Shown here: piece after piece, positions 1,673 through 53,491 of the stretch
Numbering within the stretch: the stretch's first letter is position 1
Layout: the number at the start of each line of letters is the position of its first letter
Assembly (NCBI GenBank): GCA_002862545.1
Contig: PKDJ01000181.1
Location: forward strand, 115-64,114
Direction of reading: 5' to 3'
Length of the DNA: 64,000 nt
DNA from: Pseudomonadota bacterium
Lineage (GTDB): Bacteria; Myxococcota_A; UBA796; GCA-2862545
Program-made: the position numbers and the translations under genes
Notes under the pieces: model-generated
Told to the model about the DNA's origin: nothing
Seen by the model: the letters and a program-made list of their open reading frames with translations, nothing else
The model's database searches: none

Positions 1673-1679
1673 GGCGTGC

Positions 1680-9748: not shown

Positions 9749-9850
9749 CAGGTCTCCATCGGCTGGTCGGCTGTGATGGCCGATGGTCTTTGGTGTCGGG
9801 AGTCGTGAGTGCGTCACAGGCGCTCGTGAATTTTGGGGTGGGTGGTGGGT

Positions 9851-10001
9851 GGTGCCAGGTACCTGGTGTCGTGAGTGGATGATGGGTGCCAGGTACCTGG
9901 GCCTGGAGGGGAGGTTCCTGGTGCGGAGGTGGCGGAGGTGGTGCCACGGAGGTGGTGCCAGGCTCCCAGGTGCGGGGGGAGGGGCGGTGCCAGGTACCTG
10001 G
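9851..10001. repeat. REP cluster: three exact copies of GGTGCCAGGTACCTGG plus degenerate copies
   Basis: Exact 16-mers at 9851-9866, 9885-9900 and 9986-10001, each containing the perfect 12-bp palindrome CCAGGTACCTGG. Degenerate copies are GGTGCCAGGCTCCCAGG at 9954-9970 and GGTGCCACGG at 9940-9949. The cluster lies immediately upstream of the RAYT gene. Confidence 0.65.
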
Positions 10002-10160
10002 GACCTGGGATGCAGAGGGTCTGTGGTTCGTGCTCCTCAACGGAGCCTGAAGTGCACCGCAAGACCTGCCCGGAAGCGACGCCGCCTAGGTCGAAAAAGA
10101 CCCTGCGCACTCACGGACGAGCCAGCTACGGCTGCGGCGAGGAGAACCGAAGTGGGCCGT

Positions 10161-10778
10161 ATGCACCGTTTGGCAGCCGCCGGTGATGAACACCACGTGT
10201 ACAACCGCACTGCAAATCGGATGTCCATCTTCCACCATCCTGCAGTGCGCAGCGTGTTCTTTCGACTCGTCCAGAGGCTTCGGGATCGCTTCGGGATGGT
10301 GGTTCGCGCAGTGACGCTCATGCCCACGCATTTTCACATGCTGATCGCCGACCCCAACGGCGTGCTTCCAGCTGCGATGCAGCTGTTTGGCACCAACCTG
10401 ACCCGTGCCGTGAATCGCCTTCTCATGCGGGAGGGGCGCTTGTTCATCGGCCGCTATCGCAACCGCGTTATCCGGGAGCGCCGCTATCTGGCGGTCGCCT
10501 ATGCCTATCTGGCGGCCAATCCGGTGCGGGCGGGTCTGGTCGACCACCCAGAGCGTCCGTGGCCGTCGACCCATCGTGCCTTGGCCGGACTGGAGCGAGG
10601 ACCCAAGTGGCTGGACACGAAGGCGCGAGACCAGGTCTTCGGGGCGGTCGACATCTACCGCGCGTTCGTGCTCGACCTGGGCGGCCGAGACGCGCTTGGC
10701 GATGCTGACTTCGCGGGAGGCTGTACCGGATGGTTGCCTCGGCCTCGGCCTCGCCGAGCCCCTCCTCCGCAGCCCTGA
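10161..10778 (+). CDS. REP-associated tyrosine transposase (RAYT; IS200/IS605 Y1 HUH family)
   Basis: 205 aa from the ATG at 10161. HUH motif in LMPTHFHMLI and catalytic-Tyr region YAYLAANPVRAGLV, both typical of RAYT/TnpA-REP. The longer track ORF (from 9783) runs through the REP repeats and was not accepted. Confidence 0.8.
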   Translation: MHRLAAAGDEHHVYNRTANRMSIFHHPAVRSVFFRLVQRLRDRFGMVVRAVTLMPTHFHMLIADPNGVLPAAMQLFGTNLTRAVNRLLMREGRLFIGRYRNRVIRERRYLAVAYAYLAANPVRAGLVDHPERPWPSTHRALAGLERGPKWLDTKARDQVFGAVDIYRAFVLDLGGRDALGDADFAGGCTGWLPRPRPRRAPPPQP

Positions 10779-13015: not shown

Positions 13016-16000
13016 ATGATCGTCCTGACCTTGTTGCTCCTTCTCCTCTTTGTCTCAGCCTGCTCCGTGCAGCAGGCCGAGCCGATGACTCCAACGCCCC
13101 AGATGCTCCTCCAGTGCACGGACGAGCCGGATCGTGGCTGCGTCCGGCTCCGGTTCACGTCGCCGCCCGATCTGGCGAGCCTGGACGAGGCGCTCGACGT
13201 GACCCGAGACGAGGTCGCCGTCCCTGTGTCCCTTGAGGTCGTCGCCGACGAGCCACGCGACGTGAAGATCTTCGGCTTCGATCAGGGGCTCGGGGATGTG
13301 TACCAGACGACGATCAGCGTCGAGGTCCGGTGGCAGGCCGGCTCTGCAGATGGAGAGCCGTCCGACGAGCGAGTCCGCTCGAAGACGTTGTCTGTTTGGT
13401 TGGCCTCGGGGAATTCCGCACGAATGACAGGGCTGGAGGTCATCGAAGGGGCCGACGGCCCCTTCCTCGTGCTCCGCTGCGACGACAGGCACGACACGGA
13501 CACGTGCACCCCCGAGGCAGAGGACCTCGCGGCAGTCCTGCGTCTTGACCCTCCTGTTTCCGTGGAGGTGGTCCCCGATCCGGAGGGGCTGATTCTCTAC
13601 GGGGACTTCCCGCCCGGTGTCCTCCGCGTGTCGATCGAACCTGGCACCACAACCCAGACGGGGGCCACCTTCATCGAGCAGGGACCTCTCTCGGTCACGG
13701 TGCCCACGCGCCGCCCGAGGGTGGAGCTGGTCAGCAAGGGGCGCTTCCTCCAGCCCGATGCGCTCGACCGTCTCTTCGTGCGACACCACGGTGTGCCGGC
13801 CATCGAGCTCGAGGTGCGCCATGTTCCTCGGCGGAACCTTCCTGTCTGGCTCTACGGATACCGGTCCAGCAGCTCCGATGTCGTGCTCGCCGAGACCCTG
13901 ACCGTCGAGCCGACGGAGCACACCAGCCTGCTGGGCCTGGAGCTGGCCGACCGCCTGCCTGACCTCGACGGGGGAATCCTCGAGATTCGCGTGTCCGCAC
14001 CGCAGGAGGAGGGCAAGAAGAGCTGGGAGTGGCGACCGAGCGACGTGTCCAAGGTGGTCCTCACGGATCTACAGCTCGTCGTGAAGCGCGAGCGGCCAGC
14101 CGAAGGGGAGGAGCACTTCCGAGTCTGGGGCATGGACGCAGCCGGCGGCCCTCCAGTCAGCGGTCTCGAGGTCGCGGTGATTCGTGAGAGCGGCACCCCC
14201 ATCGGAACCTGCCGTACGCGCGGTGTCGATGGCTGCAGAATCCGAATCCCCGCGGACCGGATCGATCAAGCTCCACCCTTCGCGGTCGTGGCGCGGCGCG
14301 GCGATGAGGTCACGCTCGTGGAGGTCGGCACCCTCGAGCTGGCACATCCAGCGGAGGCGGGTCGGCAGGGCTACGGCACAGCGGAGACGCTCCGAGCCGC
14401 CACGTGGCTCGACCGGGGCATCTACCGACCTGGAGACACGGTGCACCTCGCCGCGGTGCTGCGCGACGGGACGAACCTGGCACCCCCAGACGGCCTGCCC
14501 GTGACCCTCGATGTGGTCGACGCTCGCGGCAATCCAGCGCAGTCCGTTCCGACGTCGACCAACCCGGCGGGCTTGCTGACTGTGGACGTGCCGCTCTCCG
14601 ACTCTGCGGCCACAGGCCGGTGGACAGCCACGCTGAGGCATGGCGACGATCAGGACCTCGCGACGGTTCGCTTCCGCGTGGGCGAGATCGCACCAGAGCG
14701 CCTGGAGGTCACGCTCACGCCGGAGAACCCGGTCCAGGTTGCGGCCGACCAAGCGGTCTTCGACCTGGAGGCGCGGTGGCTCTTCGACGCTCCGGTCGCA
14801 GAGGGGACGGCCGACGTCAGCTGCACGGTCCGGGCGACTCGGCCGACTCGGAAGGGGCAGTCTCACCTGACCTTCGGCATCGAAGAGGGTGGGGACTACC
14901 GAGAGATCCCCGCACAGCTCGTGCGGCTGGACGCGCAGGGGCGCGCACGGGTCCACTGTCCGCTGTCGGATGTGGGGCCGCTCGATCGAACCGTTCGGGT
15001 CGTGGCCGAGGTGGCGGTCCACGAGGGGGCGGGCGGACGCGTCACGCGTGCCCATGCTGTGACCGTGGTGGAGCCGAGTCCGTTCGCCATCGGCGTCCGC
15101 GTCACGGGTGATGGGCTGGGGGCAGGACAGCCCGTCGAGGTCGAGGGCTGGATCCTGGACACCGAGGGCTCACCTGTCTCGACGGACGACGTGACTGTCT
15201 CTCTGCAGCGCCGGGTGCGGGTCGATGGGCGCGCGCACGTCCGCGTCGAGACCACCCACCACGTCGATGCGCGGGACGGGTTCTTCAGCCTCGAGCTTCG
15301 TCCACAGCTGGACAGTCTCTACGAGGTGGTCGTGTCCTACGGTGAGGCGACCACCATCGCGGACCTGGACGGGAGGGGCTCCAGTGGGCCTTCACGGCCC
15401 GGTCACCTCGTGGTCTCGGCGCCACGCAGCGCGGACCCAGGCGACGAGGTGGAGGTGGAGGTGCGGGTCGCCGAACCAGGCTGGCTGCTGACGAGTGCGG
15501 AGACGGATCGGGTGCTCGATTCTCACTGGCAGCGGGTCGTACCTGGCACCGCCAAGTGGTCTTTCCTCGCCGACACTTCGTCTCCGAACCTCTACGTCTC
15601 CGCACTGCTCGTGCGCGACCCAAAGCGCGGCACCGGGACGTCTCCCGGACGGAGTCACGGAGAGGCGCTGGTGCGGCTGCGGCCGGTGGCGCACCAGGGC
15701 GCGCTGGCCCTCGAGCTGCCCGCCGAGGTCCTGCCGGAGCAGAGCCTGGACATCGGCCTGGACCTCGACCTCGGCGAGGGCCCCGCGTGGGTGACTGTCG
15801 CAGCGGTTGACGAGGGACTCCTGTCCCTGACCAACCACCCCAGCCCCGATCCCCTCGCCGCCCTCTTCCAGCCGAGACGGCCTGGCGTCGAGACCTCCGA
15901 GACGGTGGGCTGGACCGTCGCGATTCCATCGGCGGACTTCGGAGCACCCGGGGGCGGCATGGGAGGGCGTCGGCGCCTGCAGGCCATCCAGCCTGTGGCG

Positions 16001-17953
16001 CTGTGGTCGGGACCGGTCGCGGTCGGCGCGGACGGGCGCGCGCAGGTGTCGCTGGCGGTACCGGACACCGCGGGCGCGCTGCGCGTCATGGCGGTCGGGG
16101 TCAGCGCCTCGAAGATCGCCACAGGGAGCCGTCGGGTGCGGGTGCGAACGCCCCTCCTCGTGCAGGCGACCACCCCCCGCGTGCTCGTCGAGGGAGACAC
16201 CGTCCGGATCCCTGTGGAGGTCCACAACCTCACGGGCGCGCCGACGCGTGTCGCGCTCGAGGCCTGGCTCGAGCCTGTCGAGGGGGCGAGCGGTGCCCTG
16301 CCGGCGGAGATCCTGCGGCGCGATGCCTCGCCGGTCCGGCTGGAGCCAGGGGACCGTCACGTCTTTCGTGTCGGTCTGGCCGCGACGGGTCGAACGGGAG
16401 GCGTCCGCCTGGCCATTCGGGCACAGGGGAGCGTCCACGGCACGACCCGTCGCTTCGCCCTGCCGCTGAGGCCGGCCTTCGAGCGACAGCGAGAGACGCA
16501 GCTCGTTCCGCTGCACCAAGGGCAGGCCCGACTCGACGACCTCCTCGCCGGCTGGGTCGAAGCGGATGCGCGCATCGAACTCACCGATGCGCCGTTTGCC
16601 GATGTGCTCGAGCGCCGCGACCAGCTGCTCGGCTACCCCCACGGCTGCGCGGAGCAGACCAGCTCGCGCCTCCGTGCCCTGATGGCCCTGGAGCCGCTGC
16701 AGCTCCTCACGGATCTCGAGATGGAGTCCCGGGTGCAGCATGGGATCCAGCGGCTTCAGAGCATGCAGCGAGGCGGAGGATTCGCCTACTGGCCTGGGAG
16801 TGACTGGGTTCGCCCCTGGCCCTCCCTGGTCGCGATCCACACCTTGCTGGATGCACGCGAGGCGGGATGGTCGGTCGCCTCGGGGACCATCGAGCGAGCG
16901 CTCGACTATGCGGCGGGCCTCGACGACCATCCCGACGCGACGATTCGGGCCTACGCTCATCTGATCCGTGCCCGCGGGGGACGTGGTGACGCTGCGGCGG
17001 CCGAGACCCTGGCGGAGTCTGGTGAGATTACGAAGCTGGCGAAGGTTCTCGCCCGCGCCGCGGTCGCGCTGGAGCGAGGTGTCCGACCCGGGGACGAGCT
17101 TGTCGGGGCGGACCTCGTCGGTGAGCTCGGGAAGGGGGGCACCGCCTTCTACGGCACCGGCACGCGCGACCAGGCCATGGCCTTCGTCGTCCTGCGTCGA
17201 GCCTTTGGCGAGCGGCTCGCGCTGGAGCCACTCCGTGAAGCCGCCCTTCGGAGCCTGCGGGAGGCACGCTACCCCTCCACGCAGACGCTGGCGTGGTGTC
17301 TCGAGGCCGCCGTCGAGGGTCTCTCGGATTCAGAGGAGGATTCGGTGGGCGCGCTGCGGCGCGGAGGCGAGGTCGTCGATGCCCGCCATGATGGTACCTG
17401 GCACCTTACCAGCCTCCACCCGGGGGACCGCCTCCACGTCGAGAGTGACCCGTCGAGACCGCTGTGGGCGAGCGTCACCCTTTCAGGGGAGCGCATCGGC
17501 GCACGAGAGTCGCACGACGGCGGCATTCGGGTCACCCGCGAGGTGCGGACGCTCGATGGCGAGCCGGCTGTGCTCGATGACGTGAGGGTCGGGGACGCGC
17601 TGATGGTCCTGGTGAACCTGGAGAGCACGGGCACAGTCCCCGATGTCGCGCTGGTGGATCGGATCCCCGCAGGCTGGGAGCTCGAGAACGTCGCACAGGA
17701 ACCCACCGCACTGCCCAGCTGGCTCGACGAGAAGACGGAGCTCTGGAGGACGGACCACGTCGATCGGCGCGACGACCGGGTGGCTGCATTTGGGACGCTG
17801 CACAGCGGCATCCAGACCCTGGCCTACACCGTCCGGGTCGTCAGCCCGGGCACCTTCACGCATCCGGCCGCGGTCGCAGCGTCCATGTACAAGGGCGAGA
17901 TTCGAGGGTGGAGCCAGACCGGTCAGATCACGACTCGGGAGCGCAGCCGATGA
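13016..17953 (+). CDS. Bacterial alpha-2-macroglobulin family lipoprotein (thioester type)
   Basis: 1645 aa. Lipoprotein signal MIVLTLLLLLLFVSAC. Thioester-type motif in YPHGCAEQTSS (CxEQ). The size and the downstream pbpC match the known A2M-PBP1C gene pair (E. coli yfhM-pbpC). Confidence 0.9.
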   Translation: MIVLTLLLLLLFVSACSVQQAEPMTPTPQMLLQCTDEPDRGCVRLRFTSPPDLASLDEALDVTRDEVAVPVSLEVVADEPRDVKIFGFDQGLGDVYQTTISVEVRWQAGSADGEPSDERVRSKTLSVWLASGNSARMTGLEVIEGADGPFLVLRCDDRHDTDTCTPEAEDLAAVLRLDPPVSVEVVPDPEGLILYGDFPPGVLRVSIEPGTTTQTGATFIEQGPLSVTVPTRRPRVELVSKGRFLQPDALDRLFVRHHGVPAIELEVRHVPRRNLPVWLYGYRSSSSDVVLAETLTVEPTEHTSLLGLELADRLPDLDGGILEIRVSAPQEEGKKSWEWRPSDVSKVVLTDLQLVVKRERPAEGEEHFRVWGMDAAGGPPVSGLEVAVIRESGTPIGTCRTRGVDGCRIRIPADRIDQAPPFAVVARRGDEVTLVEVGTLELAHPAEAGRQGYGTAETLRAATWLDRGIYRPGDTVHLAAVLRDGTNLAPPDGLPVTLDVVDARGNPAQSVPTSTNPAGLLTVDVPLSDSAATGRWTATLRHGDDQDLATVRFRVGEIAPERLEVTLTPENPVQVAADQAVFDLEARWLFDAPVAEGTADVSCTVRATRPTRKGQSHLTFGIEEGGDYREIPAQLVRLDAQGRARVHCPLSDVGPLDRTVRVVAEVAVHEGAGGRVTRAHAVTVVEPSPFAIGVRVTGDGLGAGQPVEVEGWILDTEGSPVSTDDVTVSLQRRVRVDGRAHVRVETTHHVDARDGFFSLELRPQLDSLYEVVVSYGEATTIADLDGRGSSGPSRPGHLVVSAPRSADPGDEVEVEVRVAEPGWLLTSAETDRVLDSHWQRVVPGTAKWSFLADTSSPNLYVSALLVRDPKRGTGTSPGRSHGEALVRLRPVAHQGALALELPAEVLPEQSLDIGLDLDLGEGPAWVTVAAVDEGLLSLTNHPSPDPLAALFQPRRPGVETSETVGWTVAIPSADFGAPGGGMGGRRRLQAIQPVALWSGPVAVGADGRAQVSLAVPDTAGALRVMAVGVSASKIATGSRRVRVRTPLLVQATTPRVLVEGDTVRIPVEVHNLTGAPTRVALEAWLEPVEGASGALPAEILRRDASPVRLEPGDRHVFRVGLAATGRTGGVRLAIRAQGSVHGTTRRFALPLRPAFERQRETQLVPLHQGQARLDDLLAGWVEADARIELTDAPFADVLERRDQLLGYPHGCAEQTSSRLRALMALEPLQLLTDLEMESRVQHGIQRLQSMQRGGGFAYWPGSDWVRPWPSLVAIHTLLDAREAGWSVASGTIERALDYAAGLDDHPDATIRAYAHLIRARGGRGDAAAAETLAESGEITKLAKVLARAAVALERGVRPGDELVGADLVGELGKGGTAFYGTGTRDQAMAFVVLRRAFGERLALEPLREAALRSLREARYPSTQTLAWCLEAAVEGLSDSEEDSVGALRRGGEVVDARHDGTWHLTSLHPGDRLHVESDPSRPLWASVTLSGERIGARESHDGGIRVTREVRTLDGEPAVLDDVRVGDALMVLVNLESTGTVPDVALVDRIPAGWELENVAQEPTALPSWLDEKTELWRTDHVDRRDDRVAAFGTLHSGIQTLAYTVRVVSPGTFTHPAAVAASMYKGEIRGWSQTGQITTRERSR

Positions 17954-20268
17954 GCCGGCGTGCATCGGCCGCTCTCTTCGCTGCACTCGCATGTGCGGGG
18001 CTCGCGGCGAGCATGTGGGTCGTGGCGCATGCGGTGCCGCTTCCGCGGCGCCTGTCCGAGCCGTCGGCCACCATGGTGCGCTGGGCGGATGGAGTCCCCG
18101 CGCACGCGAGCCTGGCACCCGACGACCGCTGGCGCTTCGCCACCACTCCGGCCGATGTCGATCCGGCCTACCTGCGGGCCTTGGTGGCCTTCGAGGACGC
18201 CCGCTTCTGGTGGCATCCCGGTGTGGATCCGCTCGCCGTGGTTCGGGCCGCCGGCCAGGACCTGCTCGCGGGGGAGGTCGTCTCTGGCGCCTCGACGCTC
18301 ACCATGCAGCTCGTGCGCGTGGTCGAGCCGCGTCCGCGGACGCTGCGGTCGAAGTCGGTGGAGGTGCTGCGTGCCGTCCAGCTCGAGCTCCGCCTTGGTA
18401 AGGAGGCGGTCCTGGGGCGCTACCTGACGTTCGCTCCCTATGGACGGAATGTGGAGGGGGTCGTCGCGGGCTCCTGGGCGCTCTTTGGGCACGGTCCGGA
18501 GGACCTCACGCCGGCGGAGATCGTCACGCTCCTCGCGATTCCGCAGAATCCGACCCGCCGCACGCCCAGCGCGCGAAATGCTGCACGTCTGCGCGCAGCG
18601 CGGGTCCGCATCGCCTCGCGGCTGCTGGAGGCCGGCGTCCTGGACGTGAAGCCCGAGGCGGCGTCTGCCTTCCTGAGCCACGTCGCCACCGGTCCGCAGC
18701 CGCTGGCGCTGCGGCCGCTCCCGCGCGACGCTGCGCACGCTGTCCGGTGGCTTCGGCCGGGGCCAGGTTCGGACATCACGTCCACCCTCGACCGCCACAC
18801 CCAGCGCATCGCCGAGGGGGTCCTGGCGGCTGAGCGAGCCTCTCTGGAGGCTCAGGGGGTGCGGCATGCGGCTGTGGTCGTCGTCGATCGAGAGACGCGG
18901 GGGCTGCAAGCCCTGGTCGGTGGGCACGACCCCTTCGGCAGCCGTCCGGGCGACTGGCTGCCGGCGTTCGCCCAGTCTCGCTCCCCGGGCAGCACGCTGA
19001 AGCCCTTCCTCTTGGCGACGGCGCTGGAGCAAGGGCTCGCCCTGCCGGAGCATCGGGTTCCCGACGTGCCGTCCATCCACGGGAGCTACGTCCCACGAAA
19101 CCACGATGGGCACTACCGGGGAACGGTTCGGCTCGGTGAGGCCCTGATCCAGTCTCTGAATGCGCCCTTCGTCGACCTGCTCGCGCGGGTCGGTGTGCCG
19201 CACCTCGTGGCGACGCTGCGGATGTCGGGTGCGCACAGCCTGTCGCGTGACCCGGCAGCCCATGGGCTCTCACTGGCGGTCGGGGGCACGGCACTCACGC
19301 CGCTCGAGGTCGCGACGCTGTACACCACGCTGGCCAGCGGGGGGAGATTCGCGCCGCTGCGGGCCCATGCTGACGAGCCACAGGTCGCGCCCCGTGAGGC
19401 GCTGGAGCCAGGCGCGGTGTGGCGGGTCGATGCCTTGCTGGGGGACCCACTGCGTCCAGACCGCCCGGAGGGCAGCGAGGGTATTCGTTGGAAGACGGGG
19501 ACCAGCCAGGGGCACCGCGACGCCTGGGCGGCGGGCTACGCGGGGGACCGCGTAGTCATCGTGTGGCTCGGGAACCTGGACCGGGAGGCGAGCTCGGCAC
19601 TGGTCGGTGGAGAGCTGGCGGCTCCCCTGCTCTTCGACACGCTGAGGGCCCTGGGGACCGAGGTGCCAGGTTCGCATGCACCCACGCCTTCGCCTCCCGC
19701 AACGCTCCGGTCTTCCCCGCTCTGCTCCCTGTCTGGAGAGCCGGTCGGCCCCCACTGTCCACACACCGAGATGGCCCTGGTGGCCGATTCGCATCCGGGG
19801 ACACCCTGTACCTGGCACCGCGCAGTCGATGTCGACGTCGCCACAGGCGAGCGGGTGACCCCGGGCTGCCGTGGTGACCGGGTCCTGCGGCGGGAGGTGC
19901 ACGTCGTGGAGCCCGCCTCGGTCCGTCGCTGGAAGTCCCGGGATCACGCGACGGCAGCGGAGCCGCTTCCTGCCCTGGCCGAGGGCTGCATGGCCCCGCC
20001 GGGACCCCCGCCTGTCATCGTCGAGCCCCCCGTCGGAGACGTGGTGTGGATCGCGTCCGACGCGCCCCTGTCAGAGCAGGAGCGTCCTCTCACGGCCGAC
20101 ACGCGCGACGGGGGCACCGTCTGGTGGACCATTGACGGCGATCTCGTGGCATGGGGTGCGGCAGACCAGAGTGCCTGGTGGGTGCCCGAGCCCGGGCGGC
20201 ACGAGGTCGTCGTCACGGATGCGGCCGGCCGGTCCGCCCGCAGGTGGGTGGACGTTCGCGTTCTCTAG
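17950..20268 (+). CDS. pbpC: Penicillin-binding protein 1C (bifunctional glycosyltransferase/transpeptidase)
   Basis: Start ATG 17950 overlaps the A2M TGA stop (ATGA). GT51 motif FEDARFWWHPGVD. Transpeptidase motifs STLKP (SxxK), SLN (SxN) and KTGTS (KTG). N-terminal membrane anchor AALFAALACAGLAASMWVV. Confidence 0.9.
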   Translation: MSRRASAALFAALACAGLAASMWVVAHAVPLPRRLSEPSATMVRWADGVPAHASLAPDDRWRFATTPADVDPAYLRALVAFEDARFWWHPGVDPLAVVRAAGQDLLAGEVVSGASTLTMQLVRVVEPRPRTLRSKSVEVLRAVQLELRLGKEAVLGRYLTFAPYGRNVEGVVAGSWALFGHGPEDLTPAEIVTLLAIPQNPTRRTPSARNAARLRAARVRIASRLLEAGVLDVKPEAASAFLSHVATGPQPLALRPLPRDAAHAVRWLRPGPGSDITSTLDRHTQRIAEGVLAAERASLEAQGVRHAAVVVVDRETRGLQALVGGHDPFGSRPGDWLPAFAQSRSPGSTLKPFLLATALEQGLALPEHRVPDVPSIHGSYVPRNHDGHYRGTVRLGEALIQSLNAPFVDLLARVGVPHLVATLRMSGAHSLSRDPAAHGLSLAVGGTALTPLEVATLYTTLASGGRFAPLRAHADEPQVAPREALEPGAVWRVDALLGDPLRPDRPEGSEGIRWKTGTSQGHRDAWAAGYAGDRVVIVWLGNLDREASSALVGGELAAPLLFDTLRALGTEVPGSHAPTPSPPATLRSSPLCSLSGEPVGPHCPHTEMALVADSHPGTPCTWHRAVDVDVATGERVTPGCRGDRVLRREVHVVEPASVRRWKSRDHATAAEPLPALAEGCMAPPGPPPVIVEPPVGDVVWIASDAPLSEQERPLTADTRDGGTVWWTIDGDLVAWGAADQSAWWVPEPGRHEVVVTDAAGRSARRWVDVRVL

Positions 20269-21728: not shown

Positions 21729-22613
21729 CTACCTGAGCGACGCCACCAGCCTGAGGAGTGTCGTCTGGTCGAGAGCGGCGTAGCCCTCGAGGGGCTGGTG
21801 GTCCCAAGCCAGGGTGTGGGTCGGCTCCAGCGCGAGGCCTGCGCCCAGCGGAGCGACCAGTGCTGCTCCGTGAAGCACCCGCAGGTCGGCGTGATTCTGA
21901 AGGTTCTCGAAGACCTCGATGGTCTGGCGCCAGCCAACCTTGTCGAAGCGATGTGCCAGGCCAACCCACAGCCGAGCCGCGACGACGGATGTGTCTTCGG
22001 CCTCCACCGTCTCGACGTAGCGCTCCTGAGCGACGTCGACGCCGGCCTCCGCGACGAGGTCGGTCGAAGCGGTGTCCACCAGCTTGCGCCCGAGGCCGGC
22101 TTGCTCGTGAGTGCGCAGCGCATAGCCGGCGAAGGGGTCGTGGAGCGCGCCGGCCACCCCGTAGATCACGTGTCGGGCGCCAAGACGATGGTCCAGCCGC
22201 ACGTCGCCCTCGAGGCGCTTGGCGGTCTCGACCCAGCGCGACCGTCGCTCTCGGCGGTCGAGGTGCCCGGAGCCGTCGGCATCGACCGCGCCACGGCCCA
22301 TGCGGGCACTGCCGATGGCGCCGAGGCCGACACGAGGACCGCGCCATCCGAGATCGCTGCCGGCCTCGAGCGTGCCGAGCGACGTGCTCCCGGTCACCAT
22401 CGAGCCGGCGAGGGCGCCCGAGAGGTAGGGGCCGATGTCGTCGGTGGGCGAGGTGACCTCGCCGCGCGGTGGAGCGTCGGGGAAGCCACGAATCGCGGGC
22501 TGAAATGTGGGCTCCATGGTGGCCAGTGCACTGGCGGCGAGCAGGACGGCGACGGACACGAGCGACCTCCGGATTCGCCCAGCGCAGACCGCGTGGTCCT
22601 GACCCGCCCTCAC
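21729..22613 (-). CDS. Putative outer-membrane beta-barrel protein (DUF481/YdiY-like)
   Basis: 294 aa with an N-terminal hydrophobic signal (SLVSVAVLLAASALA). Alternating beta-strand-like pattern with a general resemblance to DUF481. The family call is tentative. Confidence 0.45.
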   Translation of the reverse strand: MRAGQDHAVCAGRIRRSLVSVAVLLAASALATMEPTFQPAIRGFPDAPPRGEVTSPTDDIGPYLSGALAGSMVTGSTSLGTLEAGSDLGWRGPRVGLGAIGSARMGRGAVDADGSGHLDRRERRSRWVETAKRLEGDVRLDHRLGARHVIYGVAGALHDPFAGYALRTHEQAGLGRKLVDTASTDLVAEAGVDVAQERYVETVEAEDTSVVAARLWVGLAHRFDKVGWRQTIEVFENLQNHADLRVLHGAALVAPLGAGLALEPTHTLAWDHQPLEGYAALDQTTLLRLVASLR

Positions 22614-22687
22614 GTCGCTTTTTCGAATGTCATGGATTCTGGACCGACGACAGCTGCGGATACCCGCCTCGTCGTGTAGACCTCACC

Positions 22688-23611
22688 ATGACCCACGTGC
22701 TCCACCTCCTCGTCCTCCATGGTTCCTCGGCCGCCGCGTCCCCACTGGATGCCACCTGGGCCCGCTACCTGGAGACCCCGCCGCCGCGTGCCGTCGTCCT
22801 GGCTGACGCGCTCTCCGCCCGTGCGGACGAGGTCACCTCGAGCCTCGACCCGGCTGCCCTCGCGGTCACGGGTCCCGTCGATGTCGTGTGCTCGGGCGGG
22901 GGCAACCTCGACGCGTTCTACATGGGCGTGGCGATGGTCCTCGCCCGCGTCGAGGCGGGCAGCGGTGCTCTCGAGTGGCACCGCAGTGCAGGGGCGTCTG
23001 CGGGGGGCATGATGTCCTTCGAGCTGGCCCTCAAGGGCGAGCGGCTCACCCTCGAGCACCACCTGGCCTATGGCGTCCTCACCGAGGACCACCCGCTCCA
23101 CTACGCCCTGATGCCGGCAGCGGCGCTGACGCAGGACCGGCACTGGCGTGACATGGCGGCCTGGCAGACCGGCACCTATGCCGACAGCCTGTCGACGCTC
23201 GACGGACGGGTCGCCCTGGCGACCGCCTGCCTGGCACCCTGGCCGAGGCTGATCAAGCTCGACGCGTTCACGGCCGTGGACCACCAGGCCTCGGCGGCCT
23301 TCATGGCCACGGGGACGCTCTTTCAGAAGGTCGAGGGACTCTGGTGCACGGACGGGGGAGCTCTCTCGGGCCCGAACATGACGCCGCTGTTTCAGGATGG
23401 GGCTCGACCCCAGGTCGTCATCGATCTGATGCGGACGGGCTCCCCGAGCGAGCTGGTCTGGTCGTTACGCCTGAGTGAGTGGGTGGCGCTCGTGGAGCGA
23501 GGACAAGATGCCGCCGCGCAGTTCCTGCAGACGGGAGCAGTCCCGGGCGGACGCGCCATCACCCTGTGTCCGGCGGGGTCGAGCACCCGCGGCAACGTGT
23601 GTCGCGACTGA
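22688..23611 (+). CDS. Patatin-like phospholipase
   Basis: Start taken at ATG 22688 (the track ORF begins at 22469). Glycine-rich loop VCSGGGNLDAFYMG, serine elbow GASAGG (GxSxG) and catalytic-Asp motif CTDGGAL (DGG/A). Confidence 0.75.
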   Translation: MTHVLHLLVLHGSSAAASPLDATWARYLETPPPRAVVLADALSARADEVTSSLDPAALAVTGPVDVVCSGGGNLDAFYMGVAMVLARVEAGSGALEWHRSAGASAGGMMSFELALKGERLTLEHHLAYGVLTEDHPLHYALMPAAALTQDRHWRDMAAWQTGTYADSLSTLDGRVALATACLAPWPRLIKLDAFTAVDHQASAAFMATGTLFQKVEGLWCTDGGALSGPNMTPLFQDGARPQVVIDLMRTGSPSELVWSLRLSEWVALVERGQDAAAQFLQTGAVPGGRAITLCPAGSSTRGNVCRD

Positions 23612-23785
23612 GCGCGGTGCGACTCCCTCGTCGTCGAGGGGCTGCAGACCAACGACATCGCGGAGCAGCTCTGCATCAGTGCGAGCACAGTGAGTACCCA
23701 CCTACGCCGGGTGAAGGACAAGCTGGGTGCGCGCTCAAGCGCCGATCTGGTGCGGCTGGCGTTCCGAGAGGGTCTGGTCGAGTAG
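23612..23785 (+). pseudogene. Remnant of a LuxR/GerE-type HTH domain (N-terminally truncated, no start codon)
   Basis: 57 codons directly after, and in frame with, the patatin-like TGA stop: ARCDSLVVEGLQTNDIAEQLCISASTVSTHLRRVKDKLGARSSADLVRLAFREGLVE*. This matches the GerE HTH consensus (..G.sNkeIA..L.IS..TV..H...i..KLg...R..l). There is no ATG or GTG, and the first helix is degenerate. Confidence 0.5.
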
Positions 23786-23901
23786 CGGGCTTGTTCATTG
23801 CTTTGATTGGCCCTGCCTTTATGGGGTCTGCGAGAATTTTCTCCAAGAAAGGTGTGACCGTTTCCGGGGGCCCGTCACTGTAAGGCCACACGGAGGATCG
23901 A

Positions 23902-24369
23902 ATGGACATGAACGCTGAGGCCCTCGAGCTCGACACCGCCATCCGCTCGCGCAACACGACGGAGGTCGCCGTCGCGCTCGTGCTGCTTCCTGTGATGGTG
24001 GGGATCGCATGGAGCGCCCCGAGCCTCGTCCAGAGCGCGGGCTTCGCGCTGATGGCCGTCGGCTGCATGGTCGTGTCTCTCGTCCTGGGCCTCTATGGCC
24101 GCATCGAGCTGCCGGAGGCGCACCTCGACGAGGCGACCTGGCGCAGCCGCTATGCCGCCTACCTGCAGCGTCAGGTCAAGCTCCTGAGCTCCGCACCCCT
24201 CTGGTACGTGGCACCGATCATCGGCGGTATGGTGTTGGTCGTCGGTGGCCCGAGTAGCGGGAACGTGGGGATGTTCATGATGGTGGTCGGCTTCGGGCTG
24301 GGACTCTGTGTCCTGAACCTCAACGAGGCGCGCAAGCTCGCCGCTCGCCGTGATGCCGTGGCGGCCTGA
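23902..24369 (+). CDS. 4-TM membrane protein, paralog of the N-terminal module of the downstream sulfatase-fold protein (candidate anti-sigma or accessory factor)
   Basis: 155 aa with a GGAGGA RBS. Shares RNxxE(V/I)xVxxVxLP, ATW...AYLxxQ(V/I)xLLxxxPxWYxxPIxxG and LNxxxAR with residues ~30-190 of the 24872..27238 product. Its stop abuts the sigma-gene start. Confidence 0.7.
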   Translation: MDMNAEALELDTAIRSRNTTEVAVALVLLPVMVGIAWSAPSLVQSAGFALMAVGCMVVSLVLGLYGRIELPEAHLDEATWRSRYAAYLQRQVKLLSSAPLWYVAPIIGGMVLVVGGPSSGNVGMFMMVVGFGLGLCVLNLNEARKLAARRDAVAA

Positions 24370-24879
24370 TTGGACGAGGTGGAGGCCCGCTTCGCGGAGA
24401 CCGTCCGAGTGGCGGGCCCCCTGATTGCACGGACAACCCGTGGCTATGAGGCGGAGCCTCAGCGGCGGGCCGAGCTCGAGCAGGAGGTCTTGGTGCAGCT
24501 GTGGTCGGCGCTGGCGCGGTTTCGCGGCGATGCCTCGCTGAAGACCTACGCGCTTCGGGTGACACACAACGTCTGCGCGAGGCATGTCTCCCGGCAGATC
24601 CGCGATCGGTCGGAGCCCTACGCCGACCTCGAGACCCTGGGTGAGGCGCCGGATGCGCCGGAGGACCACCTGGATCGCGCACGCCAGCGCGCGCTGCTGC
24701 TGGAGGCCGTGCAGCGGCTCGCACCTGCAGACCGGCAGCTGGTACTGCTCTACCTCGAGGGGCTCTCGCCGGCGGAGATCGCCGGGGTCACTGGGCTCTC
24801 TCGCTCGAACGTCACGACGCGGACCCATCGGATCCGCGCCTTGCTGCGCACCCGGCTCGGAGGACGGAAGGATGGATGA
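24370..24879 (+). CDS. ECF-type RNA polymerase sigma-70 family factor
   Basis: 169 aa with a TTG start directly after the upstream TGA. Region 2 (LEQEVLVQLWSALARFRGDASLKTYALRVTHNVCARH) and region 4 HTH (LAPADRQLVLLYLEGLSPAEIAGVTGLSRSNVTTRTHRIRALLR). Confidence 0.85.
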   Translation: MDEVEARFAETVRVAGPLIARTTRGYEAEPQRRAELEQEVLVQLWSALARFRGDASLKTYALRVTHNVCARHVSRQIRDRSEPYADLETLGEAPDAPEDHLDRARQRALLLEAVQRLAPADRQLVLLYLEGLSPAEIAGVTGLSRSNVTTRTHRIRALLRTRLGGRKDG

Positions 24880-27238
24880 GCTCGAGCTGTGGCAGGAGGA
24901 CGACGAGCCGCTGACCGTCGACCTCGCAGCGATTCGTGCGGGCAGCGAGGCACTGGATCGCAAGGTTCGACGACGCAACATCCTGGAGATCGGCGTGGGC
25001 GTCGTGATGCTGCCGCTCCTCGGGATGGCACTGGTCGACGTGGATGTTCCGCTGGCTCGCCTCGGGTTGCTGATCCTCGTCGCCGCGGTCGTGCTGGTGA
25101 TCGCCAAGCTCTGGACCGGTGGCCGTCACCCGCTGCCCGACCCGAGCGCTGATAGCGCCACCTGGCTGGCGGGGTCGCGCGCCTACCTCGAGCACCAGAT
25201 CCGACTGCTGCGCACGGTGCCCTTCTGGTACGCCGGCCCCATCGTGCTCGGCTGCTCCGTGTTCACCACCGGTCTCAGTGTGGATGGGGGCGAGCTCTCC
25301 TCGCTCCCGGCCTACCTGGCGGCGTACGTCCTCGTCGGACTCGGGGTCGTCGCGCTGAATGTGCGTGCGGCTCGGGCGCTGGAGCGGGAGCTGGCAGCGC
25401 TTCCTCCGGCAGAGCCGCGGGAGGACGCCGAGGAGCCGGAGGCTGGCCGGGGCGCCCGCGAGGAGGTCGCGGAGTCCGGGAGGCGGGTCCCCGACAAGTC
25501 GTGGCTGATCCTTCTCCTGATTCAGCTCCCGTACTGGGTTCTCGTCCTCGGAAGCAAGATTGGACTGCTCGCGAAGCACCTGCCTGGCCTCGGCCCGATC
25601 GCCTTCCTCGATGCACTGTGGCCGCAGCTCCTCGCGCTCACCGCCGTCGCGCTGATCGGGTACGTCGGGGTCGTCTCGAACCGACGCTTCCTCGTCGCGG
25701 GCGCCGTGGCGCAGGTCTTCCTGATCGTCCTGCTCTGCGTCATGCAGTCGCCGCTGCTGTACGGCATGGACCAGTCCGGCAGTGCCGTCCGGTGGACACT
25801 CGCGGCCTGGTGGCTCCAGTGGAACGAGGTGGCGGCCGACGGCAGCTGGTACATGACCCAGCGCTACATCGCCGTGGCCTGCGTCACGGGCTTGACCGTC
25901 TTCCTGGGGGCCATGGGGCCCAACCGCGCGCGGGCGCTCGGTGCAGCGGCACTCGCGGTCGTGTGCCTCCTGCTCTCCGCGGCGGGTCCGCTCGGGTCGA
26001 CGGTTCCGCGGTACCTGGCACAGGACGCGCTCGTCTACGTCTACCTGAGCGATCTCGACATCGAGGAGAAGTGGCAGCGGATGCGCGACCGGCCCGTGCA
26101 TCCGGGCATCCAGGAGCTTGGTCCACCGGAGCGGCCCCTGAACATCGCCGTGGTGTTCCTCGAGAGCGTCGGCCATGGCGCCACCTCCCTGGCGGCCGAC
26201 GGCCCACCGACGACGCCGTTTCTCGAAGAGCTGGCCGGCCGCTCTCTAGTGGCGGACGAGGCCTATGTGGTCGTGCCGTCCACCTACAAGGCCCACATCG
26301 CCGCCCTGTGCGGCGTCGAGCCCTACTTCACCGGCGACCGGGAGATCTACGACGCCCCGTTCGACTTCGACTGCCTGCCCGAGCTGCTCGGTGCCCACGG
26401 CTACGACACCGCCTACTTCACGAGCTCGAGCCGGGAGGCCCTCGGCTGGGCTCACCTGACGAAGCACATGGGCTACGCGACCTTCCTCGGTCACGAGGAC
26501 ATGGACACAACCGGGTTCGAGTGGGCCAACATGTGGGCCTACGAGGACGACATCATGCTGGCGCCCAGCCGGGCCTGGCTCGAGGAGCGCACAGGGCCCT
26601 TCCTCACCACCTACATGGCCTGCGCGCCCCACTACGAGTACCTCGCCACCACCCGCTACGGGCAGCGCGCCTACGTCGCCGACGAGCAGCACAATCGCTA
26701 CCTCAACGCGGTCCACTACACCGACCGCTTCGTCGAGAACCTCATCGATCAGTACGAGGCGCTCGGGCTGGCTGACGACACGATCTTCGTGATCGTGGGT
26801 GACCACGGTGAGGGCTTCGGGGAGCACGTGCCACGGCAGCACAACGCTGTGCCCTACGAGGAGGTCCTGCGGGTGCCACTGCTGCTCCACCTTCCCGGTG
26901 AGTGGCCCGAAGGGCACGTCGCCGACGGCCTCCGCAGCCAGCTCGACATCACCCCGACCCTGGCCTCCTTGCTTCAGAGCTCACTCGCGGCGGGCAGTGT
27001 TCAGGGCCAGAGCCTCCTCGGTTCCCCGCATGAGCGGCTCTACACCTCCTGTCTCTACACCCACACCTGTGGTGCGGTGCACACACCCGAGCGCAAGTTC
27101 GTCCACCACTTCGGCGACCGCACGGACGAGCTCTTCGACCTGTCGCAGGACCCTCGGGAGACGCGTCCTCTCGACGAGCGCGCGCGCTCCGAGCAGCTGC
27201 GAGGCGACTTCCTGGACTGGTACGCCGGCGGCCTCTAG
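24872..27238 (+). CDS. Polytopic membrane protein: N-terminal 4-TM module + LtaS/MdoB-like 5-TM region + extracytoplasmic sulfatase-fold (alkaline phosphatase superfamily) domain
   Basis: Start ATG 24872 overlaps the sigma stop by 8 nt (ATGGATGA). The catalytic domain shows NIAVVFLESVGH (metal-binding Glu), VVPSTYKAH (candidate Thr/Ser nucleophile) and VIVGDHGEGFGEH, as in the LTA-synthase/phosphoglycerol-transferase family. Confidence 0.8.
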   Translation: MDELELWQEDDEPLTVDLAAIRAGSEALDRKVRRRNILEIGVGVVMLPLLGMALVDVDVPLARLGLLILVAAVVLVIAKLWTGGRHPLPDPSADSATWLAGSRAYLEHQIRLLRTVPFWYAGPIVLGCSVFTTGLSVDGGELSSLPAYLAAYVLVGLGVVALNVRAARALERELAALPPAEPREDAEEPEAGRGAREEVAESGRRVPDKSWLILLLIQLPYWVLVLGSKIGLLAKHLPGLGPIAFLDALWPQLLALTAVALIGYVGVVSNRRFLVAGAVAQVFLIVLLCVMQSPLLYGMDQSGSAVRWTLAAWWLQWNEVAADGSWYMTQRYIAVACVTGLTVFLGAMGPNRARALGAAALAVVCLLLSAAGPLGSTVPRYLAQDALVYVYLSDLDIEEKWQRMRDRPVHPGIQELGPPERPLNIAVVFLESVGHGATSLAADGPPTTPFLEELAGRSLVADEAYVVVPSTYKAHIAALCGVEPYFTGDREIYDAPFDFDCLPELLGAHGYDTAYFTSSSREALGWAHLTKHMGYATFLGHEDMDTTGFEWANMWAYEDDIMLAPSRAWLEERTGPFLTTYMACAPHYEYLATTRYGQRAYVADEQHNRYLNAVHYTDRFVENLIDQYEALGLADDTIFVIVGDHGEGFGEHVPRQHNAVPYEEVLRVPLLLHLPGEWPEGHVADGLRSQLDITPTLASLLQSSLAAGSVQGQSLLGSPHERLYTSCLYTHTCGAVHTPERKFVHHFGDRTDELFDLSQDPRETRPLDERARSEQLRGDFLDWYAGGL

Positions 27239-37178: not shown

Positions 37179-38413
37179 GCCCGCTGTCGCACGCACGGGG
37201 CTGGCTTCTGAGGCGGCAAGAGGTCCTGTACCCTGCCCTCGATGGCGTCAGCTTCGTGCTGCTCTACGTCTACCTGGTGCTGGCGGGCAACTGGGTGGAT
37301 GCGTCGGCCTTTGGTCAGCTCAACAGCTTGACCGCACTGCTGACTTTTCTTGCTGCGGCGGGTGCGGCCATCCAGTTCATCGTGGCCCGGCGCCTGGCCC
37401 GCGATGTCTCGACACCGCTCGGTGATCTCTGGGTGCTGGACGCGGCGCTCACCCTCCCGCTCGTGCTGCCCTTCCTGCTGCCGCTGCCTGAGGCGTGGCG
37501 TCTGTCAGCCGTGGACACGGTCGGGCCGGTCAGCTTCGCTGCGCTGGTGCTCGTGGCTGCGCAGATTGGTGTGTTCCGAGGTGTCCTTCAGGGGCGCCAG
37601 CGCTTCTTTGCGCTGTGGGCGAGCCAGCTCGCGGGCCATGTCGCGCGGCTCGCTGTGTTGGTCGCCGTGGCAGCCGGAGGGGCGACCCTCGCGACGGTCT
37701 GGTGGTCCGTGATCGCTGCTGAGGTTGCGCACTTGGTGGCCGTGGTCATTGCCTGTCAGTCGGCTGGCGGGGACCTGTGGACGAGGATTCGGCCGATCCC
37801 GGTGCGCCGGGATGTGGTGGTCGACGTGCTGCGGGTCTGCGCAGCCCAGCTCGCCGTGGCGGGCTTGCTCTCCGTCGACCTGATCTTGGCGGGAGAGAAC
37901 CTCGGTGCCGAGAGTGGAGCCTTCGCGACGGCGAATCGATTCGGTCGCGTGTTCTGCTTCCTCAGTGCGAGCGTGGCCGTGGTCCTCCTACCCCGCTTTG
38001 CGCGTCAGCAGTCCGCGGGACGTGGCCTCGGCACGCTGACGCTCGGAGCTGCGGCGGTCAGCGTGCCCGTGTCGCTGGTGGGCGCGGTCGTGCTGGTGCC
38101 GCTCATGCGCTGGATGTTTCCTGATGCAGTCGTCCCGAGCACCGCGCTCACGGTCTGGGAGCTCGGGGCCAACCTTGGCCTCGCCGTGATTCAGGTCTTG
38201 GTGACCTGGCATGTTGCCCAGTCCAGACGCTGGTACGCGGTCATCGTGGGGCTGGCCGGGGTGGTCTTGGTCGCTGCTCTACAGCTCGGACCCGCCACAC
38301 CGCTGTACTATGCTCAGGCCAGCCTGGTGGTCTTCTGGATGACCGCACTCGTCCTCTCTCGCGCCGACGTGACGACCGACACCGTGGAGTCCGAGGCCAT
38401 CGACGCCCCATGA
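37175..38413 (+). CDS. Polytopic membrane protein, MOP/Wzx-type oligosaccharide flippase-like
   Basis: 412 aa. The GTG start overlaps the upstream stop (GTGA). About 12 predicted TM helices with the size and composition of polysaccharide-biosynthesis (Wzx/MurJ superfamily) proteins. No diagnostic motif. Confidence 0.6.
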   Translation: MSPLSHARGWLLRRQEVLYPALDGVSFVLLYVYLVLAGNWVDASAFGQLNSLTALLTFLAAAGAAIQFIVARRLARDVSTPLGDLWVLDAALTLPLVLPFLLPLPEAWRLSAVDTVGPVSFAALVLVAAQIGVFRGVLQGRQRFFALWASQLAGHVARLAVLVAVAAGGATLATVWWSVIAAEVAHLVAVVIACQSAGGDLWTRIRPIPVRRDVVVDVLRVCAAQLAVAGLLSVDLILAGENLGAESGAFATANRFGRVFCFLSASVAVVLLPRFARQQSAGRGLGTLTLGAAAVSVPVSLVGAVVLVPLMRWMFPDAVVPSTALTVWELGANLGLAVIQVLVTWHVAQSRRWYAVIVGLAGVVLVAALQLGPATPLYYAQASLVVFWMTALVLSRADVTTDTVESEAIDAP

Positions 38414-53394: not shown

Positions 53395-53491
53395 GGAGAC
53401 TCCGGACGGGCGGAGTGTACTCGCAGAAGGTGCAACAGTCCGAGCGGTGGCGGCGCCTGGTGATAAGGCGGGCGGAGCCGACGGAGCCTGG

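Follow-up and report, generated by a model that had tools for sequence, protein, structure and literature searches.

A putative ECF22-like sigma factor operon encoding a four-transmembrane module fused to an LtaS-type enzyme

In a 64-kb stretch of bacterial DNA (64,000 nucleotides (nt) of contig PKDJ01000181.1, here called the window), three genes at positions 23902-27238 raise the question of why the gene for a sigma factor of the extracytoplasmic function (ECF) type is flanked by two copies of a membrane module, and of what the fusion of one copy to an enzyme means for the control of this sigma factor. The first gene, ORF1 (ORF, open reading frame), codes for a small protein with four transmembrane (TM) segments, the second for the sigma factor, and the third, ORF3, for a protein of 788 amino acids in which a related four-TM module is followed by an LtaS-type part. 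The locus is read here as an autoregulated operon of an ECF22-like sigma factor, in which ORF3 would be the cognate membrane anti-sigma factor carrying the LtaS-type part and ORF1 a modulator; the probability of this reading is estimated at roughly 55%. An anti-sigma function of ORF3 is suggested by its position, its coupling to the sigma gene, its topology, the fusion pattern of its family and the analogy to the AS22 proteins of Xanthomonas. Neither the LtaS-type fusion nor the truncated module copy upstream of the sigma gene was seen elsewhere.

An original prediction, made from the letters of the window alone, described the three genes as tightly packed, and this was confirmed. The TGA stop codon of ORF1 (24367-24369) directly adjoins the TTG start codon of the sigma gene at 24370 (TGATTG), and the sigma stop codon (24877-24879) overlaps the ATG of ORF3 at 24872, as ATGGATGA; ORF3 ends at 27238. 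A longer ORF1 is impossible because of an in-frame TAA 7 codons upstream, and the TTG start is supported by the sigma factor of an unrelated soil contig (locus L001), which is 39% identical and aligns from residue 1. A mechanical ORF of 884 amino acids starting at 24584 was rejected as a real gene, since its first 288 nt show the codon bias of the sigma gene. The G+C content at third codon positions (GC3) is 0.83-0.89 across the three genes.

Linkage of the module to ECF sigma factors

The four-TM module belongs to a very large family. An exhaustive profile search identified 2,099 representatives at 50% identity (E <= 1e-3), of which 1,090 reach E <= 1e-10, and proteins of 185-205 amino acids make up the majority. 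Word-indexed protein searches with ORF1 and with the N-terminus of ORF3 gave no more than a single relative besides the query, and a profile search through the word index gave 13 proteins, all named "hypothetical". No model in Pfam or NCBIfam covers the module. Among 50 members, sub-threshold matches of TM hairpins to RseC_MucC (16/50), DUF3040 (9/50) and DUF2207_C (7/50) were obtained, which were not accepted as evidence for homology. The RseC_MucC matches (best E = 8.6e-5) fall on the TM3-TM4 hairpin and may reflect the mere composition of a TM hairpin; RseC_MucC is a two-TM positive regulator of sigma-E.

For the genetic context of the family, 5 metagenomic loci, 52 loci from a search covering a single genome of each species and 5 loci from a second scan with the subfamily of the window, including one in a Polyangiales metagenome-assembled genome (MAG), were analysed. 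Linkage to sigma genes was scored by hidden Markov model (HMM) searches of all six-frame ORFs at these loci. In 60 of the 61 loci having upstream DNA, among them all five metagenomic ones, an ECF sigma gene is located directly upstream of the module on the same strand. The sigma stop and the module start overlap in 42 of the 61 and are at most 20 nt apart in 13 more. The single exception is L146, an orphan and N-terminally truncated copy. The loci span at least eight phyla, including Gemmatimonadota, Acidobacteriota, Verrucomicrobiota, Planctomycetota, Bacteroidota (Rhodothermales), Proteobacteria and Myxococcota; in the nearest myxobacterial locus (L143, Polyangiales) the module is unfused and has no LtaS gene next to it. 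The central inference of the original prediction, that the module is a partner dedicated to ECF sigma factors, was borne out by this almost perfect linkage, and a generic membrane domain without a connection to ECF factors is ruled out by it.

The family consensus starts with MxxDELxxxW, in which the Trp is conserved in at least 90% of the members, and continues with a juxtamembrane LDRxIRRRDxxE, two TM hairpins around a cytoplasmic helix ending in QxRLLxSVxWWYxxP, and an LNxRAVR helix after TM4. All five elements are present in ORF3, in the order MDELELW (residues 1-7), juxtamembrane helix, TM1-2, cytoplasmic helix 95-114, TM3-4 and LNVRAAR helix. In an AlphaFold2 model of ORF3 residues 1-205, based on an alignment of 15 sequences (mean pLDDT 84, pTM 0.71), helices are formed by residues 18-56, 60-83, 95-114, 116-137 and 142-176, and residues 1-17 are disordered. 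The conserved soluble parts of the module, namely DEL..W, the R-x-R-N/D-x-x-E helix, the helix preceding TM3 and the LNxRA helix, are all predicted to be cytoplasmic. Neither an HxxxCxxC motif nor a Pfam match to zf-HC2, RskA or RsdA at E <= 0.1 was found, in agreement with the earlier statement that the module is neither a zinc-binding anti-sigma (ZAS) domain nor of the RskA type.

The sigma factor itself consists of regions sigma2 and sigma4 only, in 169 amino acids, which is the composition of ECF (group 4) factors (Sigma70_r2, E = 3e-10; Sigma70_r4_2, E = 1.2e-12; TIGR02937, 85.1 bits against a cut-off of 42.9). It is 29% identical to ECF22_4450 (E = 5e-17) and 30% to ECF22_1147 (E = 3e-9) and gave no match to two ECF21 references; this comparison covered references of ECF22 and ECF21 only. 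The sigma factors of four related loci (L001, L002, L004 and L006) matched ECF22_4450 with E = 5e-24 to 2e-35, always better than ECF21. Putative anti-sigma factors with four TM segments have been reported for three groups, ECF36 (an actinobacterial ZAS protein at position -1), ECF209 (actinobacterial) and ECF22 (Casas-Pastor et al. 2021, PMC7826278). For ECF22, probable four-TM anti-sigma factors at position +1 with weak hits to DUF2207 were described (Casas-Pastor et al. 2021, PMC7826278; bioRxiv 10.1101/2019.12.11.873521). The module family agrees with ECF22 in its phyla, in its position at +1 and in its weak matches to DUF2207, and a four-TM module at +1 of the sigma gene is also present in the window, as residues 1-176 of ORF3. 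The suggestion that the module represents a new type of anti-sigma factor was therefore not sustained, because the sigma factor is ECF22-like and probable four-TM anti-sigma factors of ECF22 had already been described.

Two of these partners, both from Xanthomonas, have been studied, AS22_1147 (XAC2815) and AS22_4450 (XCC2644), which are four-TM proteins encoded at +1 with an N-terminal MELDDxxxAW (Rhodius et al. 2013, PMC3817407). In E. coli, the AS22 proteins repress ECF22_1147 and ECF22_4450 5.7- to 35.7-fold, compared to about 1-5-fold for 34 other sigma factors (PMC3817407). The module family shares with them the N-terminal motif (M-x-L-D-D/E-x-x-x-x-W), the colinear four-TM layout, the position at +1 and a size of about 195-215 amino acids, and the sigma factors are 29-40% identical across the clade. 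However, both window copies belong to a subfamily characterized by RNxxEW, PLWYVGP and LNLRAARKL and without the LxPxxxEL tail that forms a C-terminal helix in the AS22 proteins. In addition, the published descriptions of ECF22 and AS22 mention neither fusions to periplasmic enzymes, nor beta-lactamase-fold neighbours, nor a copy at -1, whereas in the window the partner carries an LtaS-type enzyme and the candidate promoter precedes ORF1 instead of the sigma gene.

Polytopic anti-sigma factors are also represented by CarR and NrsF (DUF1109, ECF16), which have six TM segments and no zinc-binding anti-sigma domain (ASD), are co-transcribed and translationally coupled with their sigma factor and are thought to sense the state of the membrane or envelope (PMC8156234). 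The window module is likewise polytopic, without a zinc-binding ASD and translationally coupled to an ECF sigma gene. However, it has four TM segments instead of six and no match to DUF1109, and CarR and NrsF carry no fused enzyme. Anti-sigma factors of the four-TM ECF22 type serve as parts in synthetic biology; to our knowledge, there is neither a Pfam model nor a solved structure for them.

A putative promoter is also shared by the related loci. About 60 nt upstream of their sigma genes, the bipartite motif TGTAA(T/G)-N16-GCGACT was identified, with a score of at least 10 of 11 in 40 of 51 loci, compared to 31 of 475 control windows, and with the full score of 11 in 15 of 51 loci, compared to none of the 475 controls. 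The window contains an 11/11 match, TGTGACCGTTTCCGGGGGCCCGTCACT, which is located before ORF1 and not directly before the sigma gene. When both strands of the 64 kb were searched (128 kb), the pattern was found only twice. The second match, at 10310-10338 on the minus strand, was judged to be a chance occurrence, since it is antisense inside an IS200-like ORF; this ORF (9783-10778, plus strand) has a sub-threshold match to the IS200-like Y1 transposase family PF01797 (E = 4e-4). Because a full-score motif, rare in the window, precedes ORF1, the three genes most likely form one autoregulated operon, with this element as the candidate promoter. The published ECF22 promoter is TGTGATTTT-Xn-GCGAAT(C/A)AT (Casas-Pastor et al. 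2021, PMC7826278), and the clade resembles ECF22 in the TGTxA of the -35 region, the GCGA(A/C)T-like -10 region and the presumed autoregulation. The element in the window reads TGTGACCGTTT-N-CGTCACT, in which the TGTGA core of the -35 region and the T-run are kept and the -10 region differs.

Several results weigh against the reading of ORF3 as an anti-sigma factor of an ECF22-like system. The -10 sequence CGTCACT differs both from GCGAAT[C/A]AT of ECF22 and from GCGACT of the family. Homology of the module to the AS22 proteins is not significant: the family HMM gave E = 0.08 and 2, hhalign gave a probability of 5.5% with only the N-terminal 90 residues aligned, and the best phmmer E-value of 3.4e-4 was equalled by 3 of 100 shuffled sequences, so that the phmmer values are explained by composition. 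Convergence of the AS22 proteins and the family in jackhmmer was disregarded, since non-significant matches had to be included to reach it. As homology to AS22 is not established, the system is termed ECF22-like; and since beta-lactamase-fold neighbours are absent from the published description of ECF22, the clade may be a sister group of ECF22 and not ECF22 proper. A Foldseek comparison of the module model with the PDB gave generic helical bundles only (best E = 0.09), with no anti-sigma factor among the matches listed. Further, no close relative of the ORF3 fusion was found in genome or metagenome contig collections; it was seen only once. Binding of sigma by the module is itself inferred.

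Fusions of the module and the LtaS-type part of ORF3

The part of ORF3 behind the module had been described as an LtaS/MdoB-like membrane domain with five TM segments and a sulfatase-fold domain, and this description proved correct. The five hydropathy peaks are located at residues 212-230, 243-269, 273-291, 332-350 and 356-374, the Sulfatase family PF00884 matches residues 424-702 with 143.5 bits, and the motifs LES (430-432), PST (469-471) and GDHGEGFGEH (643-652) are present. From hydropathy and the positive-inside rule, a protein with nine TM segments (four plus five) is predicted, with the N-terminus inside and the C-terminal domain outside; the intervening cytoplasmic loop of 49 residues (163-211) contains 9 K+R and 12 D+E.

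The enzyme domain aligns over its full length with the LtaS/LtaP structures 4uoo, 4uop and 2w8d (E = 1e-14 to 1e-9). In these alignments E431, T471, H587 and D644/H645 correspond to the metal-ligand and nucleophile residues of LtaS/LtaP (4uop, 2w8d), so that the domain looks catalytically competent, with the Thr nucleophile and the metal ligands intact. The formylglycine motif C/S-x-P-x-R of S1 sulfatases is not present in ORF3, and S1 sulfatases align only with the C-terminal half; an SGSH_C match of 31.5 bits points to an arylsulfatase-like C-terminal subdomain. The scores of ORF3 stay far below the NCBIfam equivalog cut-offs for LTA synthase (NF053595, 67.7 against 970) and for the OpgB type (NF009027, 20.2 against 572; NF003000, 16.9 against 574). 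Thus, ORF3 shares with LtaS, LtaP and MdoB (4uoo, 4uop, 2w8d, 2w5q) the five TM segments, an extracytoplasmic PF00884 domain, the Thr/Glu/His/Asp-His set and the lack of the formylglycine motif. However, the similarity is distant (E = 1e-14 to 1e-5), the C-terminal subdomain is arylsulfatase-like, and the host is a Gram-negative myxobacterium. We know of no member of the LtaS family with an N-terminal anti-sigma module.

A signalling role for a protein of this architecture has a parallel in PbgA/YejM (LapC), in which five TM segments and a periplasmic domain of the alkaline-phosphatase fold report the lipid state of the envelope to a cytoplasmic partner. PbgA is devoid of the catalytic set, and the target of its signal is LapB/FtsH instead of a sigma factor. 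In contrast, ORF3 retains the catalytic set, and its score with the PbgA-type model NF038282 was 24.9 bits against a cut-off of 825. The feedback logic proposed below for the window operon is found in trans in B. subtilis, where sigma-M is induced when LtaS is lost and in turn switches on LtaSa (PMC8144471). There, the sensor, an anti-sigma complex, is a different protein from the enzyme, and the sigma factor is a member of another ECF group, whereas in the window sensor and enzyme would be parts of one polypeptide.

Fusions as such are common in the family. A C-terminal extension of at least 90 amino acids on the module was found in 26 of 57 loci, and within these 26 proteins DUF3887 was identified in 13, a Beta-lactamase family domain in 4 (one of them with two copies) and Peptidase_M23 in 1; P0080 is one more fusion to a beta-lactamase domain. 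For 24 unfused modules, a downstream gene of substantial size could be assigned; it is of the Beta-lactamase family in 12 (6 with DUF3471), of the M23 family in 2 and MacB/FtsX in 2. Other fusions of the module to sulfatase or LtaS domains were not seen among the loci examined. Membrane anti-sigma factors are usually built with a cytoplasmic N-terminus and with periplasmic domains at the C-terminus that vary. The idea that the fusion couples ECF signalling to envelope enzymes was upheld to the extent that it fits this habit of the family (26/57 extended, 12/24 unfused and followed by a beta-lactamase-fold gene). The habitual joining to periplasmic envelope enzymes also suggests peptidoglycan- or lipid-derived substrates as candidates for the signal.

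The most common layout across the phyla is an ECF sigma gene followed by the four-TM module and a Beta-lactamase-family domain (PF00144, often with DUF3471), either fused or as the next gene. A description of this association was not found in the ECF22 literature consulted, and literature searches for fusions of anti-sigma factors to LtaS or beta-lactamase domains gave nothing relevant.

The fusion in ORF3 could, in principle, be an artefact of assembly or sequencing by which a module gene was merged with a downstream LtaS-like gene. It is present in this one contig without a relative, the enzyme is encoded by a separate downstream gene in many other loci, and the joining segment is acidic and of low complexity. 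However, GC3 is 0.80-0.97 over the entire ORF3, including 0.82-0.95 in one frame over the junction, and it holds at 0.87 in the linker, which shows that the reading frame is continuous there. Further, the topology works only in the fused form, since four TM segments return the chain to the cytoplasm and the following five place the enzyme outside, and comparable fusions to periplasmic domains exist in 26 of the 57 loci. An artefact is therefore considered very improbable.

The frequent fusion to, or location before, beta-lactamase-fold, M23 and DUF3887 domains, and here an LtaS-type one, would also fit a membrane anchor. The module might then be not an anti-sigma factor but a membrane protein that depends on sigma, is translated together with it and assists periplasmic hydrolases as an anchor, chaperone or regulator; it would be an output of the regulon, with sigma controlled otherwise. 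The missing similarity to solved anti-sigma domains in Foldseek, the lack of a Pfam anti-sigma match and the unproven homology to the AS22 proteins speak in its favour. However, about half of the family members are unfused proteins of about 195 amino acids, and half of those checked precede a non-hydrolase gene (MatE, MacB/FtsX, phosphorylase), so that the constant partner of the module is sigma and not the enzyme. The 4-nt overlaps give translational coupling to sigma, the classical layout of sigma and anti-sigma genes, the conserved residues of the module are cytoplasmic and not periplasmic, and besides sigma and the module no other regulator is conserved at the five metagenomic loci. Moreover, the Xanthomonas ECF22 proteins of equal position and topology do repress their sigma factor. 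A role solely as a hydrolase partner is regarded as unlikely on this evidence, and an anti-sigma function of the ORF3 module is preferred.

ORF1 and a proposed mechanism

The paralogy of ORF1 and the N-terminus of ORF3, noted in the original prediction, was confirmed by BLASTP with ORF3 residues 1-209 (35% identity over 145 amino acids, E = 6e-19; ORF3 residues 28-170), and all three motifs quoted for it are present. Judged from their sequences, the two modules are old paralogues. A recent duplication in place did not occur, because the closest relatives of either module are found elsewhere and not in the neighbouring copy. ORF1, with TM segments at residues 22-40, 46-64, 98-116 and 122-140 (hydropathy), starts about 25 residues later than the family and is devoid of the DEL..W motif. 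It retains the juxtamembrane helix, the loop helix and the invariant family residues R17, E21, W101, P105 and N139. The canonical +1 position and the N-terminal motif are thus found for ORF3 only, and the two modules are not equivalent, since ORF1 lies at -1 and lacks this motif.

A module copy at -1 of a sigma gene was not found in any of the other loci examined. Additional copies in other arrangements were observed. In L013, a second copy (1654-2178, minus strand) is divergent from the sigma gene. In L146, the orphan copy (3992-4471) codes for an N-terminally truncated module of 159 amino acids, like ORF1, without an adjacent sigma gene; the end of a beta-lactamase gene lies 1 kb upstream of it. 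P0141 (L150, 4001-5254) and P0005 each contain two modules in tandem within a single polypeptide, and the double module of L150 is located at +1 of the sigma gene and is followed by a beta-lactamase gene. The tandem proteins are a hint that modules may work in pairs.

With two copies at one locus, it has to be considered whether both are anti-sigma factors, or ORF1 the main one, and whether the module of ORF3 then mainly extends the membrane part of an ordinary LtaS-like enzyme that is a regulon member. ORF1 comes first behind the promoter, is preceded by a good Shine-Dalgarno sequence and is coupled to sigma via TGATTG. The juxtamembrane helix, the loop helix and the invariant residues are kept in it, ECF groups with two anti-sigma factors are known, for example ECF107, and double-module proteins exist. 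However, the gene of the partner lies at +1 and not at -1 in all the other loci, and the roughly 25 N-terminal residues missing from ORF1 include the at least 90% conserved Trp and the motif that is the only part common with AS22. In addition, the truncated copy in L146 stands without a nearby sigma gene, so that truncated copies need not be sigma binders. An anti-sigma role for ORF1 of this kind therefore appears quite doubtful. ORF1 is most likely a modulator, either a partner of the ORF3 module or a weak second binder of sigma, and would be an old truncated family member that has come to lie behind the promoter and ahead of the sigma gene.

For ORF3 as the cognate anti-sigma factor, the following mechanism is proposed, in which both the signal and the part played by ORF1 are inferred. 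In the resting state, sigma would be held at the membrane by those elements of the module that are cytoplasmic. A change in the envelope, registered by the LtaS-like part through the occupancy of lipid donor or acceptor, its conformation or proteolysis, would alter or destabilise the module. The freed sigma factor would then transcribe its own operon from the promoter before ORF1, and the production of more enzyme and more anti-sigma factor would close a negative feedback loop. The likely sensor and the likely response would thus be one protein, ORF3. An intact LtaS-type enzyme and a presumed anti-sigma factor in one polypeptide, together with a truncated copy, make this operon the most extreme case found in the family. 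If the state of the enzyme gates sigma, the locus would be a compact and testable example of an enzyme that senses stress for itself; otherwise it still offers a way to define the sigma-binding determinant of the family.

A more far-reaching version of this mechanism is speculative and is given only a small chance of being correct. ORF3 might be an envelope homeostat in one polypeptide, in which the cycle of catalysis or lipid binding in the LtaS-type domain sets the grip of the module on sigma via the five TM segments, so that the enzyme would sense its own insufficiency and drive its own synthesis. ORF1, which is devoid of the N-terminal motif, might pair with the module of ORF3 as an anti-anti-sigma factor or gain-setter; this pairing is proposed because the tandem double-module proteins suggest that modules pair. 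The family as a whole might then be a device for reporting the substrate state of periplasmic hydrolases (beta-lactamase/PBP fold, M23, DUF3887) to an ECF sigma factor.

Coordinates and other genes of the window

The features of the locus are listed in Table 1.

Table 1. Positions of the features at 23853-27235 in the window, with the evidence for each.
Feature	Position	Strand	Evidence and remarks
ECF22-like promoter candidate	23853..23879	+	TGTGAC-N15-CGTCACT; -35 TGTGA, -10 GTCACT; 23 nt before ORF1
Shine-Dalgarno GGAGG of ORF1	23892..23896	+	read from sequence; 5 nt 5' of start
ORF1, four-TM module	23902..24369	+	155 amino acids; ORF, GC3 0.88, family HMM E = 5.9e-43 from profile position 27
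ECF sigma factor, ECF22-like	24370..24879	+	169 amino acids, TTG start; Pfam/NCBIfam matches
ORF3 residues 1-176, complete four-TM module, proposed anti-sigma part	24872..25399	+	family HMM E = 1.3e-49 from profile position 4
ORF3 residues 177-211, acidic low-complexity cytoplasmic linker	25400..25504	+	charge counts, pLDDT 57-68
ORF3 residues 212-374, five TM helices, LtaS-like membrane domain	25505..25993	+	hydropathy, loop charges
ORF3 residues 424-788, predicted periplasmic sulfatase-fold (alkaline-phosphatase superfamily) domain, LtaS type	26141..27235	+	PF00884, alignment with LtaS/LtaP structures

Some observations were made on other genes of the window. At 22469-23785, an ORF of 380 amino acids is ended by a TGA at 23609-23611; it has no Pfam match, and patatin-like GGG, GxSxG and DGG motifs were identified by eye. 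Directly behind this TGA and in frame lies a region, without a start codon of its own, that matches the helix-turn-helix family PF00196 (GerE/LuxR) with E = 1.6e-13 and at profile positions 13-57 only; this could be due to an interrupted gene, read-through or a sequencing error. A 1376-amino-acid ORF at 38410-42540 has no Pfam match, and neither have two overlapping ORFs on opposite strands at 52865-56191, of 772 and 951 amino acids.

At 13016-20268, a gene for an alpha-2-macroglobulin (1645 amino acids) is followed by an overlapping gene for the penicillin-binding protein PBP1C (786 amino acids; Transgly, Transpeptidase and BiPBP_C), which is the classical bacterial pair of these two proteins. 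The G+C content is 66-72%. Compared to its counterpart in a Myxococcota MAG, the CysS protein encoded in the window shows 78% identity, and compared to those of Polyangiaceae and Sandaracinaceae MAGs 60-65%.

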